A DNA stretch of 64,000 bases from Escherichia phage Esco_phi_B-01, in the sequence record OP292222.1, one strand, 5' to 3'. Below, piece by piece: positions 55,925 through 63,213 of the stretch (position 1 is the first letter of the stretch; every line of letters starts with the position of its first letter). The notes under the pieces are model-generated. The model searched no databases, was not told the DNA's origin, and saw only the letters and a program-made list of their open reading frames with translations. Both the position numbers and the translations under genes were made by a program.

Positions 55925-56254
55925 ATGAACAAGCTGAATATTGTTAATGAACTTCGTCGTTGTGCAGAACCTACTCAAGAAGGTTGGGATATTTGGTACC
56001 ATGGCGCTTATCTTGGAACTATTGTTAAGATTAAAGCGGGTAAATACTTAATCATCCGTGGTGGTTCTGAAGCTTCTATGGGAATTCGTAAGAACTTTAT
56101 GGCAGCCATCAGCACCTTTGTTCCAGCTGCTTATGAAGTCTATAAAGCCGACTACAAAGAATACCAGGAATCACAACCAGTTATTCGTTCAATTGGTGTT
56201 AATAAAGCTCAACAGAAAACTTTATGGCAACGTATTAAAGGATGGTTCAAATGA
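55925..56254 (+). CDS. hypothetical protein (109 aa)
   Basis: RBS ctGAGGAAAttattATG. Confidence 0.55.
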   Translation: MNKLNIVNELRRCAEPTQEGWDIWYHGAYLGTIVKIKAGKYLIIRGGSEASMGIRKNFMAAISTFVPAAYEVYKADYKEYQESQPVIRSIGVNKAQQKTLWQRIKGWFK

Positions 56255-56406
56255 AAACATTTAAAATTGTCGTAGAATTTTATAACGGCGAAGGTGTGGT
56301 CCATCTTAAAGCAGCCAACCAATTTGATGCTGTAAGAGTATATTGTCAATGCTTTGAAAGTTCCAAAAAGGCCATAAAAATCAAAAGCGTTGAGGAAACC
56401 AAATGA
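56251..56406 (+). CDS. hypothetical small protein (51 aa)
   Basis: ATGA overlaps on both sides. Confidence 0.4.
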
Positions 56407-56867
56407 AACCCTTCAAAGAGCGTCTTGAATTATTAGACCTGGCTTTATCACGTGAGACCCCTGAAAGTCTTGCTGCTAAATTCCAGTCATATGGATACGC
56501 CAACTATACAGAAGAAGATGTTCTAAAAGAAGTTCCTGAAATCTGTTGGCAGATTGCTCATTGGAACAACAATGAAAAATATCAGCGACGAATTGTGTGT
56601 GCAGCCAACCGCTTTAAGTTAAAAGACGGCGGGACTTTGGTTATTCCTGGCGCTCGTCATTATTCAAAAGATATGGCGGAAGTGCTTGACCAAGTAAGTG
56701 ATAAACTTGTGTCAGAGCATGTTTGTGGTGATGACCAAGGATTTATCGACCAATATTCAAACTATTGGACTCGCGAAGAAGCAATGATTATTGCAACATA
56801 TGCTAATCAAGTTCGTATTGAACGTGGTGGTAGTGAAAAAGAACTTTACTCTGAGGACCTTTACTAA
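56403..56867 (+). CDS. hypothetical protein (154 aa)
   Basis: ORF. Confidence 0.55.
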
Positions 56868-57460: not shown

Positions 57461-57736
57461 ATGACTAAAATTGAAATCGTTTCCGAAATTGCTACTATTG
57501 TTTCCATTTTGATTAAAACGGATTGTGAAGACATCATGCAACGCCGTGATGAGTTTATTGCCTTTTTGAATGAGTTAGGTATTCGTAATGAACATGGAAA
57601 GGAACTTAACGGTCTATCTTTTAATAAACTCTTTAAGTCTTTAACTGAAGATGAACGTGATACTCTTATTGAGCAATTTAACGAAGGGTATGAAGATATA
57701 CACCGTTATCTAATGATGTATACCTCCAATTTTTAA
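57461..57736 (+). CDS. asiA: anti-sigma-70 protein AsiA
   Basis: similarity recalled to T4 AsiA (IVSEIATIVSILIK, FIAFLNE.G, LIEQFNEGYE..HRYL.MYT). Confidence 0.9.
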   Translation: MTKIEIVSEIATIVSILIKTDCEDIMQRRDEFIAFLNELGIRNEHGKELNGLSFNKLFKSLTEDERDTLIEQFNEGYEDIHRYLMMYTSNF

Positions 57737-58386
57737 CGAGTTCGACCTAATGTCCTCCCGGCCTGACCACACATAGACGAAAGTCTAGGAAATCCTAAAT
57801 CCGGTTTGGTATCGTACCAATATAATGATATCGAGCCGGCATAGATGTTATCCAAATTAAAAAACGGGCATGAAAACATATACGTGAATTGGGTTTTCTT
57901 CTTTGTAGGAAGGAACACAGTTTCTGTACTTGATTCAAAATAGTTTCCGTTAACTCCCGCCATATATTCTACTGACGTTTTGTCAATTGGAAACCCTCCC
58001 GTATTTTTTGCGTCTACCGTTTCCGGTAATTTACCCTCATAAGCAACCATATCCACAAAATAATTCATGTTGGTTGGTCTAAAAGAATATATTGCTGTGA
58101 AGTCTGCGCCTGAAGAAGAATGCACTATTCGGAGCTGCTCGATAGCCGCAATTTTAAATCTATTGTCCTGGTCTTGTCTAATCATTTCAGTATAAGAGGC
58201 ATAAGTTGTCTCTTTATAAAAGTTTAGAATATACTCGCCTTTATACCAAACTAATGCCATAAAGAACAATAATATTACGACTAGGACCCGGGAAAAAACT
58301 ACTTTCCCGGAAGAAGTATCTTTAAAAATTCTATCAAGAAGTCCAAAAAGTAGGTCTGATAATGAAAATCCTACTTTTGGTTCCAT
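57733..58386 (-). CDS. t: holin (T-type)
   Basis: similarity recalled to T4 holin t (LLFGLLDRIFKD, VVILLFFMA.VWY, YSFRP.N.NYFVD..AYEGKLP); converges on asiA. Confidence 0.9.
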   Translation of the reverse strand: MEPKVGFSLSDLLFGLLDRIFKDTSSGKVVFSRVLVVILLFFMALVWYKGEYILNFYKETTYASYTEMIRQDQDNRFKIAAIEQLRIVHSSSGADFTAIYSFRPTNMNYFVDMVAYEGKLPETVDAKNTGGFPIDKTSVEYMAGVNGNYFESSTETVFLPTKKKTQFTYMFSCPFFNLDNIYAGSISLYWYDTKPDLGFPRLSSMCGQAGRTLGRTR

Positions 58387-58404: not shown

Positions 58405-58412
58405 TATTTATA
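58405..58412 (-). promoter_or_regulatory. T4-type late promoter TATAAATA (minus strand) upstream of holin gene
   Basis: octamer on minus strand about 20 nt upstream of start, followed by SD aaggag. Confidence 0.5.
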
Positions 58413-58428
58413 ATTTAATACTTTCGTA

Positions 58429-59205
58429 TTATACCCAAGACCCGTAAATAGTACCTGTGGCACCCCATGAAGGACTATTACCACTTACAGCAGGCCCTGC
58501 AGCTCCAGGTGGAGACATGGATACACTGCGTCCATAACCCCAGCCGCCTGCAGCGCCTGCGTCACCGCCCCAACCGCCACCAAACTGTCCGCCGGCATCC
58601 CCGGGACCACCGGCCCCAGCATAACTAGCGTTACCGCCAGGTCTATAACTAGTTGCACCACCTAACCCGAATGGTCTGCCACCGCCACCGCCGCAGGTTG
58701 AGCCAGAAGGATAGCTATTTTGCAATGATGTAGCACCGCCACCACCGCCACCACCACAGATAACACCATAGTTCCATATGCGTAAACGCCCACCAATTTC
58801 ATTATAAATTGCTGTACCGCCTTGTTGGCCTCCACCGCCATTGGTTGCGCCATTACCACCGCGTCCCCACATATGAACCCCACCATGAATATTCAAAGTA
58901 ACGTATTCGTTAGGGATGTCACTATTCATAAAGAACAATGGAAGGTCTCTAGTATAAGATACTAAATCGCCGGTGATATTAAACACAATAGGTGCAGCGC
59001 CGGCTTCAAAACAACGGTCTCTAAACCAATACCCGTTGAAGTTGTGGTCCGCCCCAAGTGTGTGAATTATTTCAACAGACCGACCTATCATATTACTCAT
59101 CCAAAATGGAACACCCATTCTCAATCGTTGGGCTGCTCCTGCCATCCAAGGGTCCCCAGTTTGTACCCTTGCAGACCATCCTACCCACGGTCCTTCAACT
59201 GCCAT
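58429..59205 (-). CDS. 38: gp38 receptor-binding adhesin with glycine-rich motifs
   Basis: N-terminal region recalled as gp38-like ([37 protein letters not shown]); multiple poly-Gly runs; start at ATG with SD ggagg (track start 59217 is TTG). Confidence 0.85.
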
Positions 59206-59236
59206 ATAAACCTCCAAGGGGCCTAGGCCCCTCTTA

Positions 59237-62200
59237 TTATTTTAACAATGATTTAACTAAAGCTTTAAGTTCTTCAATCTCTGATTTCAATTCTGCTATT
59301 TCGGCAGTGTGCTCATTGATTGCAGCTGTATTTAAACCAATTACACCGTTATAGTTCAAACGAAGTAAAGCTTCACCATCAGGGTCACCTTCAACCAATT
59401 CAGGTAAAATAGCTTGAACTTCTTGGGCAATTAAACCAGCATTAGGTTCCCATTTCTGATTACCTTCCTCATCTAGGCCTCGCTTCTGCATATAAGTGTA
59501 ACCGTTAATTTTAGAAAGCTTCTGAGAAGCATTTTCAAATTTAACAAGGTCCTTTTTAACACGAATATCAGAGCGGACATAAACATCGCGGACAAACGTA
59601 GAATAGGCATCACTTTGTTGGACTAAATGCCCATAAGAAATAATAGCTCTTCCTGTTTCGGTCCACAAAGCACCGGTGGTATCCCAAAGACCTTGATGAA
59701 TCTGATAACCGGCTGACCATGAAGCAATATGAACACCATTGGCAACCATATTGATTCGGCCATCGCCACCATGAACTAATCCGGTATCATTATCACCAAT
59801 AACAAGACATGGTCCGGCCCACACAGGGTCACCGCCGCCAGCTGATAATCTTGCTCCAGTTTTAACCATGTTAGGAACAAACAGAGTTCCATTGTGGTGG
59901 AATTCATATATAGCTTGTGGGTCAGAACCGTTTTCTTGGTTACCTACACGAATAATACCTTGCGCCCATGTATTAGTGATGCGTCGCATGCCAAAATCAA
60001 CACCTGATATGTATCCTTCGTTAGTAATACCAGATTTTCCTTTGATAATTGGATAATAACTATCATTACCAACATTACCAAAATCAACAAATACCGGTGC
60101 TTCTTGCTTCCATTGGTTTCCCCAATCGCCAGCCTGGTGGGATGCCCAGACAGAGCCATTAATAAAAAGACGGTCCCTATTAAAATTAAAAGTGGCTGAA
60201 CCTTGTGGGTTTAAAGCAATATCGCCGTCTGCATTAATATTTACGCCTGAATTAGTTTGAAAACTATAAATTGATACAGCATTATCGGCACCGCCGTTAC
60301 CTACATACCAGTTATCAATACCAGCTTTTTGTCCTTTCATATAACCAGATTCGGTTGCAGCACTGTTAATAACAATAGCATCCGAGTTTGCATTCAGCGT
60401 TAAACGCCCGGTCATTGTGTCGCCGCCTTTACCTACACGAGTATTCACCGCTGCGTCAAGGTTAGTAGCACCGCTATACTTGTTCCAAATAGAACCTGCA
60501 ATATTACCATCAGTATTCATGAAAGCTGTACCGGCATATAAGCGGTTCTGAGCCATGAAGTTACCTTCTTTGGTAAAGCGCCAGTATTTTAATCCGGTTG
60601 TAACGCCATCGCCCTGCAAATCACCTTGAGCAACAATTCGGTATTCGCTCGTGGTGCGGTCCATACCTTGAGTAATAGTTACATTAGAAACTGTATTTTT
60701 CTGCTTGGTAATTGGATAGAATGCTTGGGTTGCTGCACCAAGTGTTTGATACAACGGAGCTTTAGTCGTATTCTGGTTGGCATAAGATGCACCATTACCA
60801 GCAGGGAATTCTAATACGCTGTTAGCAATAAAAGAAACTTGGTCAGCCGCTAAATTAGGGATTTTAACTTGACCGGTGTCTAACGTAATACTTAATGGGC
60901 GTAATGGGCCTAATCCGCCACTTTCGCCGGCATTAACATTGGTTGGGATAATATGCAGCTGGTCTTCTGAATTTCGGAAAATAACACCATATTTATCATT
61001 CCAAATACGAAGACCACTAGCAGCGCGGACTTTAATTTCATTGGAAACATACAGATTGCGTTTTAAGGATGTATCTTGACTGACAGACAATCCTTCGACG
61101 ATGTTCATCGTACCGTTTAAATAAGATTCGACTTTACCTGCTGTAGTTCGTTGAATATAGTGCATCCAGCCGGTAGCATCAGATGTTTCCAATACGTTTT
61201 TACGAGAACCACCTACCGTATTAAAAGTGTCACCCCAACCTTTGAGCTCTATATTATCAACTGAACTATATCCTGTGGTACTTCCTTTAAAAATCACAGT
61301 GGAAGCGTTACCACGACCGTCAATATTAACCGAACCACCACGGACTTCAACGTTACCAGGAGTAACCAACAACCCACCATCAGTGTTAACGTTTGTTACA
61401 CCTTTACCACGGAAATAATGGTGGTATTTACCACTCTGATGATAACCTAAAAGAGTCTGTCCATCACCAAAGCCGTTTTTATCATTAGTAGTATTAACAA
61501 TAACTAATGGATAGTTTTGAGCTGTAGGAAGAATTAAATCAGAACCGTTGGTTGAATAACCAGCAACTAACTGTTTAAGGCTTGTAACTTCAGTCGGAGT
61601 TGTAAGTAAAGTATAAGCTCCATTATTAACTGTATGGAACTGGCCGTCTTGTTTCCATTTCAAACCTGTGTTATTGTCACCAAGAGCAATTGAAGCCGTC
61701 CCTAATTCAGAATATCCTTTAGGGCCACCTGGAAGACCTACAGAAATAGAATGACCGGCTTTCAATCCACCGGACCAGGTAAACGACCAAAGATAAGTGT
61801 CTAAGCCATCTCCGGAATACCAGGCTATTCCGTCATTAACATTAACTTCGTGGAAAATACCTGCTCCTACAGCATTTCGCATAACACGGAGGTGGTTAAT
61901 AGCCGTTTCGCTTTCTGCCAATGGAGTGTTATTTGATAATGAAGATATATCGTAATCGCCGGCGGCTTTACCGTCGGTAATAACTTTATTAGTATAAATT
62001 ATTGGAGATTTTACCGATGTTCCACCAGAAATAGATGGAGCATAAAATAAACCGTCACCGTTGAATGCAAAAATATTAGATGTTGAATTAGTGTAATCCT
62101 GAACACGAACATTTAAGATTTGCTTGGTATCCCCAGCACGGTTTTGAGAATAAATTATGCCTCTTTCACGCGCATCAGCCAAATCCTGGAATCGAACGTG

Positions 62201-62557
62201 GGTAGTTCCTGCACCCCGTACAAGAACTTCACCGTTATCTGTCATTAGGCGAGATTTTGCTGTGATATCACCATTTGCTGTTATACTTCCGGATGTCGTA
62301 TAACTACCTGTTTGGGTAAAAGCACCCTTCAGGGCATAATCGCCGGTCTGGTTGTAGTTACCGTTATGAATAACGTTTCCGTCGATATTACCACCTTTAG
62401 CAAAGCCAAGGTCGATAATCGCTCCAGTGTCATCTTTGGTAAATAACAAACGGTCTTTTAAGTTAATAGCCAGCTCGCCTTCAGCCAACTGCGCTGGCGT
62501 AGGACGTACACCAGCTACTTTACTTCTTTTAAATTGTATCTGTTTTAAAGTAGCCAT
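59237..62557 (-). CDS. 37: long tail fiber distal subunit gp37
   Basis: N-terminus [17 protein letters not shown]...[13 protein letters not shown] matches T4 gp37. Confidence 0.93.
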
Positions 62558-62565
62558 AATGCCTC

Positions 62566-63213
62566 TTAATAATAACCAAAATCTTGAATAGAATCTTTTT
62601 GAACAATCTGGTCAAAGCGAGGAACGTGTCCTGCACCAGAGGCCGGATTCCGTGAAATAAAGTTAGGAGCCGCTAGCACTCCATCCATTATTTGCATGTC
62701 AGTATTATTTATTTGGACCTGTTTTGCGTTATCTACTAATGACAATCCAACTTGGGCTTTAGTAGGGGTGTTGCCTGGGCTGAATACGCGGCCTGATTCA
62801 TCATAAACTTGACGGAATAACGAATCACCCATTACAGTAAGACGTTTAGCACCAACTGTTGTATTTGGGTCAAATATCATAAACGGAGTACCATCTTCCG
62901 TTTCATATCCAAAAGCACCTTTAATACGGAAAGAAGCTGTGAACGGGGCTCCGCCGGTTCTTGCTCCTAATTTAATACCATATCCATTAGTATCATTAAA
63001 GGTCAAACCTTTTTCAAAATACACGTTGTTCTGATAATTACCACCGTTAGCTTTTGAAACGAAATCGTTATCAACTGCTTGAGGTTTATTATACTCGGTG
63101 TAAACTTTATATGTTTTGTAAAGAAGGTCGTTTGATACAGGCGTTAAAGGAAAATTACCTTGGTGCCATAATACCGAACCTCCTGCTGTAGAACCTAATT
63201 TTAAATCTGCCAT
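62566..63213 (-). CDS. 36: long tail fiber hinge subunit gp36
   Basis: N-terminus MADLK.GST.GGSV.WHQGNFPL and C-terminus PRFDQIV.KDS.QDFGYY match T4 gp36. Confidence 0.92.
   Translation of the reverse strand: MADLKLGSTAGGSVLWHQGNFPLTPVSNDLLYKTYKVYTEYNKPQAVDNDFVSKANGGNYQNNVYFEKGLTFNDTNGYGIKLGARTGGAPFTASFRIKGAFGYETEDGTPFMIFDPNTTVGAKRLTVMGDSLFRQVYDESGRVFSPGNTPTKAQVGLSLVDNAKQVQINNTDMQIMDGVLAAPNFISRNPASGAGHVPRFDQIVQKDSIQDFGYY

Follow-up and report, generated by a model that had tools for sequence, protein, structure and literature searches.

The minus-strand ORF of 258 amino acids (aa) at 58429–59205 of Escherichia phage Esco_phi_B-01 (OP292222.1) is very probably gene 38 of a Dhakavirus-like T-even phage, encoding a receptor-recognising adhesin of the T2/T6/S16 type. 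Positions are those of the window, the whole stretch of 64,000 nucleotides (nt) that was analysed. Comparison with related phages shows the gene to be a recombinant, in which an attachment domain of the type found in MN04 and JS10 is joined to a receptor-binding domain (RBD) of the type found in UP19, with the junction at the domain boundary. The gp38 adhesin family has been known since the 1980s. Host range in most T-even phages is determined mainly by the gp38 adhesin, and efforts to engineer host range or to predict receptors from genomes routinely target it. With two crystal structures available for the family, a 95% identical protein annotated in UP19 and the exact sequence already public, the protein is an ordinary and known one. 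This copy of gp38 brings no new biology, and its practical value is modest but real.

Gene 38 and its neighbours

An earlier note on this DNA had placed a gene for a gp38-type adhesin at 58429–59205. We found an ORF with exactly those coordinates, running from an ATG at 59205–59203 to a TAA at 58431–58429; the position thus stands, and the strand, which had been left unstated, is the minus strand. The program-made ORF list begins this ORF at a TTG at 59217, four codons upstream of the ATG. As M1 and A2 are invariant across 55 homologues, and the two relatives with solved structures, gp38 of PP01 and gp38 of S16, begin with the same MAV, we conclude that the ATG at 59205 is the true start. Plus-strand ORFs within gene 38 (e.g. 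58467–58628 and 59058–59354) were set aside as by-products of the GGN-rich antisense strand.

The order of genes on the minus strand is gp36-gp37-gp38-holin t, and is identical in UP19, MN04, NC-G and LHE83. To judge from sequence comparisons, the window is part of a Dhakavirus-like T-even genome, with NC-G, Ec2-ASingh, MN04, UP19 and LHE83 as its closest relatives. The features of the locus are:

59237..62557, minus strand: gene 37, distal long-tail-fibre subunit, 1106 aa (Pfam gp37_trimer, Gp34_trimer and Peptidase_S74; UP19 annotation)
59211..59215, minus strand: Shine-Dalgarno GGAGG, 5 nt upstream of the ATG (read from the sequence)
58429..59205, minus strand: gene 38, very probable receptor-recognising adhesin, 258 aa (ORF; Pfam; PDB 9V85 and 6F45_D; PHROG 2056)
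57733..58386, minus strand: holin t (Pfam Phage_holin_T, 6.7e-67), the conserved downstream neighbour, bounding the variable cassette on its 3' side

Gp38 belongs to the adhesin family

When gp38 was used to query Pfam, it matched the GP38 profile (PF05268) from 1 to 218 of 218 (1.4e-73, 247.7 bits against a cut-off of 25) and the Gp38_N profile (PF21721) from 1 to 40 of 40 (8.6e-20, 70.9 bits against a cut-off of 25), and no Pfam match outside the adhesin families was returned. It also matched PHROG 2056, 'tail fiber protein; host specificity' (2e-98). A phmmer search of the PDB returned matches to only two entries, 9V85, the RBD of PP01 gp38 (1.5e-68), and 6F45, in which chain D is full-length S16 gp38 in complex with gp37 (5.2e-47). 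An AlphaFold2 (AF2) model of gp38, made with 55 homologues, had a mean pLDDT of 90.4 and a pTM of 0.82. Comparison of this model with the PDB using Foldseek recovered the same two structures (9V85, E = 7.5e-26, TM 0.88; 6F45_D, E = 1.4e-23, TM 0.80) and nothing beyond them, the next match having E = 2.9. The earlier note had proposed alignment with gp38 adhesins of T2/T6/S16-type phages as a check, and this alignment was obtained with both Pfam profiles over their full length and with both solved structures. Its reading of the gene as a gp38-type adhesin is supported by four independent lines of evidence: sequence families, similarity to solved adhesins, predicted fold and gene context.

The most closely related named protein is gp38 of the Dhakavirus UP19 (CAI9865742.1, annotated as 'tail fiber protein; host specificity'), which is 95% identical in amino acid sequence and 94.9% identical in nucleotide sequence, and lies in the same gene order. 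PP01 gp38 (9V85), which binds OmpC of E. coli O157, has the same fold (rmsd 2.3 Å; 58% identity over 220 columns) and the same five-loop layout on a polyglycine-II sandwich. However, the RBDs of the two proteins are 48% identical and their loops only 21–40% identical, and with loops and RBD this divergent a receptor shared with PP01 is not expected. Gp38 of Salmonella phage S16 (6F45, solved with the gp37 tip), another OmpC binder, aligned over its full length with 45% identity, and the two share three N-domain tryptophans, the GGGGGGG(G) central helix and the C-terminal motif. They differ in loop B, which is shorter in S16, and their RBDs are 44% identical.

Gp37, the partner fibre subunit

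Gp37 in the window likewise resembles its S16 counterpart. Its last 190 residues (aa 917–1106) matched the S16 gp37 tip plus chaperone (6F45_A) with an E-value of 9.5e-43, which allowed two features to be placed:

59573..59809, minus strand: gp37 tip, aa 917–995, predicted docking site for the gp38 N-domain (aligns with the S16 gp37 tip)
59240..59572, minus strand: gp37 C-terminal intramolecular chaperone, aa 996–1106 (Peptidase_S74 at aa 996–1055; alignment with the S16 gp37 C-terminus)

The chaperone is predicted to cleave itself off at a conserved S-D(I/R)R motif. Self-cleavage of gp37 has been described for phages with a gp38 adhesin, and a gp37 with Peptidase_S74 and an S16-like end is the arrangement of such phages (PMC9569957).

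Comparison with gp37 of MN04 revealed 97–99% identity over aa 1–560 and 996–1106, and lower identity between these segments. The gp37 tip (aa 917–995) is 86% identical to that of MN04 and 77% identical to that of UP19, the same ranking as is seen for the gp38 N-domain. The distal fibre as a whole is a mosaic, with segments that differ in their nearest relative. The N-terminal third of gp37 (aa 1–300; 61657–62557, also 62501–62700) is 99% identical to MN04, 78% to UP19 and 73% to NC-G. Within the shaft, aa 721–916 (approximately 59810–60395) share 33–53% protein identity with UP19, MN04 and NC-G, while the flanks are 86–99% identical to MN04; the best nucleotide match to this segment, 68–92% identical, is Ec2-ASingh. 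By these identities, aa 721–916 constitute a second hypervariable module, located in the fibre shaft.

Domains and distal loops of gp38

The AF2 model, together with alignment to S16 and PP01, divides gp38 as follows:

59086..59205, minus strand: N-terminal attachment domain, aa 1–40, MN04/JS10-type (Pfam Gp38_N at aa 1–40; AF2)
58867..59085, minus strand: first part of the beta-helix, aa 41–113 (AF2; aligns with the PP01 and S16 beta-helix domains)
58489..58866, minus strand: Gly-rich receptor-binding region, aa 114–239 (AF2; superposition on the PP01 RBD, TM 0.88)
58432..58488, minus strand: C-terminal strands closing the beta-helix, aa 240–258 (AF2 strands 240–242, 246–249 and 252–254)

In the attachment domain the model has helices at aa 8–16, 21–27 and 36–39, each preceded by a tryptophan (W7, W20 and W35). 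All three tryptophans align with those of S16 and are invariant in the six-member cluster described below. The N-domain of S16 gp38 consists of three helices with tryptophans at the helix apices (PMC6851490). The first part of the beta-helix includes strands at aa 46–50, 53–56, 73–77, 81–83, 91–93, 102–106 and 111–113, and a helix at aa 58–68. The receptor-binding region is made up of two extensions, aa 114–132 and aa 151–239, with beta-helix strands (aa 133–150) between them, and the extensions contain 46 glycines in 108 residues. In the model these extensions would build a polyglycine-II sandwich, an architecture described for S16 (PMC6851490) and PP01 (PMC12892980). DSSP assigned neither helix nor strand to the Gly-rich region, yet its pLDDT is mostly 88–97. 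DSSP has no class for polyglycine-II helices, which makes the missing assignment expected (PMC6851490), and unassigned structure at high pLDDT, as the model has here, is what a predicted polyglycine-II lattice looks like (PMC6851490). In the closing strands, P245, W247, G251, Y254 and G255 are invariant among 55 homologues.

Five distal loops were placed by alignment to PP01, using the loop definitions of PMC12892980:

58834..58848, minus strand: predicted distal loop A, aa 120–124, ATNGG (corresponds to PP01 loop-A, W119–I124)
58696..58725, minus strand: predicted distal loop B, aa 161–170 (corresponds to PP01 loop-B, by alignment)
58639..58656, minus strand: predicted distal loop C, aa 184–189, ATSYRP (corresponds to PP01 loop-C, by alignment)
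58582..58599, minus strand: predicted distal loop D, aa 203–208, DAGGQF (corresponds to PP01 loop-D, by alignment)
58516..58536, minus strand: predicted distal loop E, aa 224–230, YGRSVSM (corresponds to PP01 loop-E, by alignment)

Loop B is the block of lowest pLDDT in the model (66), and among six alleles its position 168 is G, N, D or E. Position 189 in loop C is P or S among the same six. In loop D, Q207 aligns with Q206 of RB51, and the P0124 sequence has -W in place of QF. Loop E carries S227R in UP19 and M230K in P0125. In PP01, loop E sets specificity, and loops D and E cross-link to OmpC. The suggestion that variable segments set host range, made earlier from the letters of this stretch, agrees with published genetics and structures (PMC3157838, PMC12892980, PMC12032242, bioRxiv 10.64898/2026.04.02.716166).

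By analogy with S16 and PP01, gp37 would trimerise with the aid of its own C-terminal chaperone domain, which would then cleave itself off, and one gp38 monomer would dock on the exposed gp37 tip via its N-domain (aa 1–40, with W7, W20 and W35). The rest of gp38 would form a small beta-helix, from which the extensions at aa 114–132 and 151–239 would pack as a three-layer sandwich of polyglycine-II helices. The sandwich would carry the five variable loops at its far end, where they would touch an outer-membrane receptor of the Escherichia host, and this contact would be the reversible first step of adsorption.

Chimeric origin of gene 38

Gene 38 was compared with its relatives at the sites that separate UP19 from MN04. 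From 59224 to 59134, a stretch that includes the gp37-gp38 intergenic site and codons 1–24, the sequence is MN04-type at 23 consecutive sites. Sites of both types are mixed from 59130 to 59088, and from 59080 to the stop codon nearly all of approximately 170 sites are UP19-type. A 100 nt identity scan agrees with this pattern. The exchange can thus be assigned to a short interval:

59080..59134, minus strand: recombination transition zone, codons ~24–42 (informative sites; boundary between attachment domain and beta-helix)

Protein identities follow the same division:

Attachment domain, aa 1–40: MN04 98%, UP19 72%
Beta-helix, aa 41–113: MN04 88%, UP19 100%
Receptor-binding region, aa 114–258: MN04 68%, UP19 99%

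The N-domain of JS10, like that of MN04, is 98% identical to that of Esco_phi_B-01. In the receptor-binding region, only two residues differ in UP19: S227, which is replaced by R in loop E, and the last residue, a V here but an L in UP19. On its downstream side the cassette ends with the gp38 stop codon, and the holin gene beyond it is approximately 100% identical in all four relatives. Since the gp37 tip ranks the relatives in the same way as the gp38 N-domain does, the two sides of the docking interface appear to move together, with exchange affecting the receptor-binding part. Gene 38 represents a clean natural cassette exchange at the boundary between attachment and receptor binding, with its junction where an engineer would choose to put one.

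A rare receptor-binding allele

The cluster that includes this protein at 90% identity has six members, among them the exact sequence, in an NCBI contig, and UP19. In these six public sequences the same receptor-binding allele is found on three attachment-domain types, which is consistent with modular shuffling as reported by Trojet et al. (PMC3157838). Outside the cluster, the best RBD matches in phage records, a collection of 5.8 billion proteins and IMG/VR were 66–69% identical, and a scan of IMG/VR for further copies of the allele returned none closer than 70%. The UP19-type receptor-binding allele is therefore rare. It lies outside the receptor-prediction panels, which include Tequatrovirus, Mosigvirus and Krischvirus and leave out Dhakavirus, and the supplement of the receptor-prediction preprint contained no Dhakavirus, UP19, JS10 or MN04 entries. 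Once determined, the receptor of this allele would fill a gap in the training sets for receptor prediction.

The six sequences of the allele differ from one another at 19 of 145 positions. Eight of the 19 variable sites (121, 164, 168, 189, 207, 208, 227 and 230) are in the loops defined from PP01, which account for 34 of the 145 positions (Fisher p = 0.043, from six related sequences). The loop tips may thus be where selection acts, though the signal is marginal. Across alleles, the GRMs are invariant and the HVS loops drop to 12–57% identity. In the deposited gp38 sequences of Bp7 (P0026) and vB_EcoM_RZ (P0013), similarity to the family is lost part-way through the Gly-rich region. Both have the look of frameshifts, which could stem from sequencing errors in the GC-rich repeats or be genuine truncations.

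Candidate receptors

Our best guess at the receptor, held with low confidence, is OmpF or a related porin. A neighbour-joining tree of RBDs, drawn without support values, puts the clade of this allele in a superclade with RB51, RB69, FL31, fPS-2, T2 and the Krischvirus-like P0066, separate from the OmpA, Tsx and OmpC groups. RB51, RB69, FL31 and fPS-2 bind OmpF. T2 uses OmpF and FadL. It is because the allele groups with binders of OmpF (and of FadL or OmpW), and because Q207 matches the corresponding glutamine of RB51, that we favour a porin of this kind. Counting against the guess, one residue is enough to change the receptor in this family, as RB51 goes from OmpF to OmpW with Q206L in its equivalent of loop D (bioRxiv 10.64898/2026.04.02.716166).

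The alleles nearest to that of Esco_phi_B-01 outside its own group are those of the OmpF binders RB51, RB69, FL31 and fPS-2 and those of JS10, MN04 and UGJNEcP4, with RBD identities of 66–69%; reports of a receptor were not found for the last three. All of these share with it SLQNS...ST in loop B and QFGGG, which includes the RB51 switch glutamine, in loop D. They differ in the beta-helix, where GYWFRD and MNSDIP here correspond to GQWFRD and MYGDTP, and identity in loops A, C, D and E reaches no more than 44–57%. Against the nearest alleles with a known receptor, all OmpF binders, RBD identity is 66–67% and loop identity 44–57%, and all five loops differ. Loops A, C and D are closer in P0066 (67–89%), the source of which proved RB49-like in a nucleotide search. 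Also against OmpF, the related Dhakavirus LHE83 uses OmpA and Bp7 uses LamB or OmpC. Serum raised against gp38 has been shown to block adsorption of LHE83. Most characterised gp38 adhesins bind porins. No paper on receptor or host range was found for UP19.

In a contig of an RB49-like Krischvirus (L016; GCA_023098545.1, JALMHA010000052.1, 5352–6777), an ORF of 157 aa lies between gp37 and gp38, and gp38 is not followed by the holin gene. Loops A, C and D of its gp38 are nearer to the allele of Esco_phi_B-01 (67–89%) than those of RB49's own allele are.

It is less likely, though conceivable, that the UP19-type cassette recognises a receptor outside the set of Tsx, OmpA, OmpC, OmpF, FadL, OmpW and LamB, or combines a porin with a polysaccharide. 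If so, its spread over three attachment-domain types would point to a host-range cassette that has had recent success among Dhakaviruses. We consider it improbable that this gp38 adhesin has a surface polysaccharide, LPS core or O antigen, as its primary receptor, whether instead of or besides an outer-membrane protein. RB49-like gp38 adhesins do use certain O antigens as primary receptors besides OmpA (PMC9569957), several gp38 phages need both a porin and LPS (PMC3157838), the adhesin of Pet-CM3-4 is reported to use LPS, and loops A, C and D here resemble those of a Krischvirus allele. However, that Krischvirus allele, P0066, is not the one in RB49, whose RBD is only 46% identical to that of Esco_phi_B-01; the OmpA and O-antigen data for RB49 were therefore rejected as not transferable to P0066-like loops. 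The bias of characterised gp38 adhesins towards porins also stands against a polysaccharide, and OmpF or a related porin remains our tentative choice.

Gp38 of T4 is a different protein

T4 gp38 shares its name with the protein described here, and its gene has the same position, between gene 37 and t. T4 gp38 is not a virion component, as is also stated in the T4 and RB69 records. If gp38 of Esco_phi_B-01 were of this type, it would be a non-structural assembly chaperone of gp37, absent from the virion, and the gp37 tip would bind the receptor. Older GenBank records do label homologues in JS10, RB69 and IME281 as 'distal long tail fiber assembly catalyst'. However, T4 gp38 is unrelated in sequence, is 183 aa long and does not include glycine-rich motifs. 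Alignment with it, named in the earlier note as the finding that would overturn the adhesin reading, was looked for with BLASTP and gave E = 1.2, the longest aligned piece being 31 residues with 19% identity. The RB69 and T4 records themselves state that gp38 of the T2 subfamily is unrelated to that of T4 and is the adhesin, and the Pfam, PDB and fold matches obtained here are all to adhesins and none to a chaperone. In addition, gp37 in the window has a Peptidase_S74 chaperone of its own and an end that differs from that of T4 gp37, and it can be aligned with the S16 tip. With no meaningful alignment to T4 gp38, we rejected a T4-type chaperone as having a negligible chance of being correct, and retain the adhesin.

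Glycine content and runs

The motifs that had been picked out in the glycine-rich half of gp38 are present, GGGGGGG at aa 151–157 and CGGGGG at aa 171–176, and there is a further run, GGGG, at aa 123–126. The sequence contains approximately ten Gly-rich segments. The glycine content is 36% in aa 111–258 and 11% in aa 1–110, which raises the G+C content of the glycine-rich part of the gene to 57%, against a window mean of 39%. When the C-terminal part was shuffled with its composition kept, at least three runs of at least four glycines were reached in 15% of shuffles, so the runs themselves are not beyond chance. What is non-random is the glycine composition and the fixed positions of the glycines: among 55 homologues, 26 of the 50 invariant alignment columns are glycine, and 22 of these glycines are in aa 114–258. 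That the Gly-rich half might be low-complexity linker sequence without order, or an artefact of composition lacking any specific fold, as its 36% glycine, its chance-level run count and the lack of DSSP helix or strand might suggest, was rejected computationally and has next to no probability, given those 22 invariant glycines, a pLDDT of 88–97 through most of the region in the AF2 model and the superposition of the region on the PP01 gp38 crystal structure by Foldseek (TM 0.88, rmsd 2.3 Å).

The poly-glycine runs had also been called extended, which did not hold: the longest here is 7 residues, whereas in 127 homologues the median is 8 and the maximum 9, and the overall glycine fraction of gp38, 0.252, is that of the family median, 0.251. 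Nor are the glycine motifs spacers; in the predicted fold they instead form the core of the polyglycine-II sandwich, from which the variable loops protrude.

Other sequence features near the fibre genes

A perfect GC-rich palindrome, AGGGGCCTAGGCCCCT, lies between the gp37 stop codon and the gp38 Shine-Dalgarno sequence (59217–59232) and can form a 7 bp hairpin. The 55 nt gp37-gp38 intergenic stretch folds as RNA with −17.6 kcal/mol (z = −1.95). A T-run follows the AGGGGCCTAGGCCCCT hairpin only when the plus strand is read, and the hairpin could therefore stop antisense early transcription, or could stabilise late mRNA. In the 42 nt gap between the gp38 stop codon and the start of holin t, the T4 late-promoter consensus TATAAATA is found on the minus strand at 58405–58412, and holin t may thus have a late promoter of its own.

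On the other side of holin t, the motA-asiA early block (56242–56867) includes ORFs of 54 and 154 aa in the window, where UP19, MN04 and NC-G annotate ORFs of approximately 112 and 162 aa. A long match to MN04 from the upstream side ends within this block, at approximately 56254. The difference may be due to a small indel or to a replacement among the early genes.
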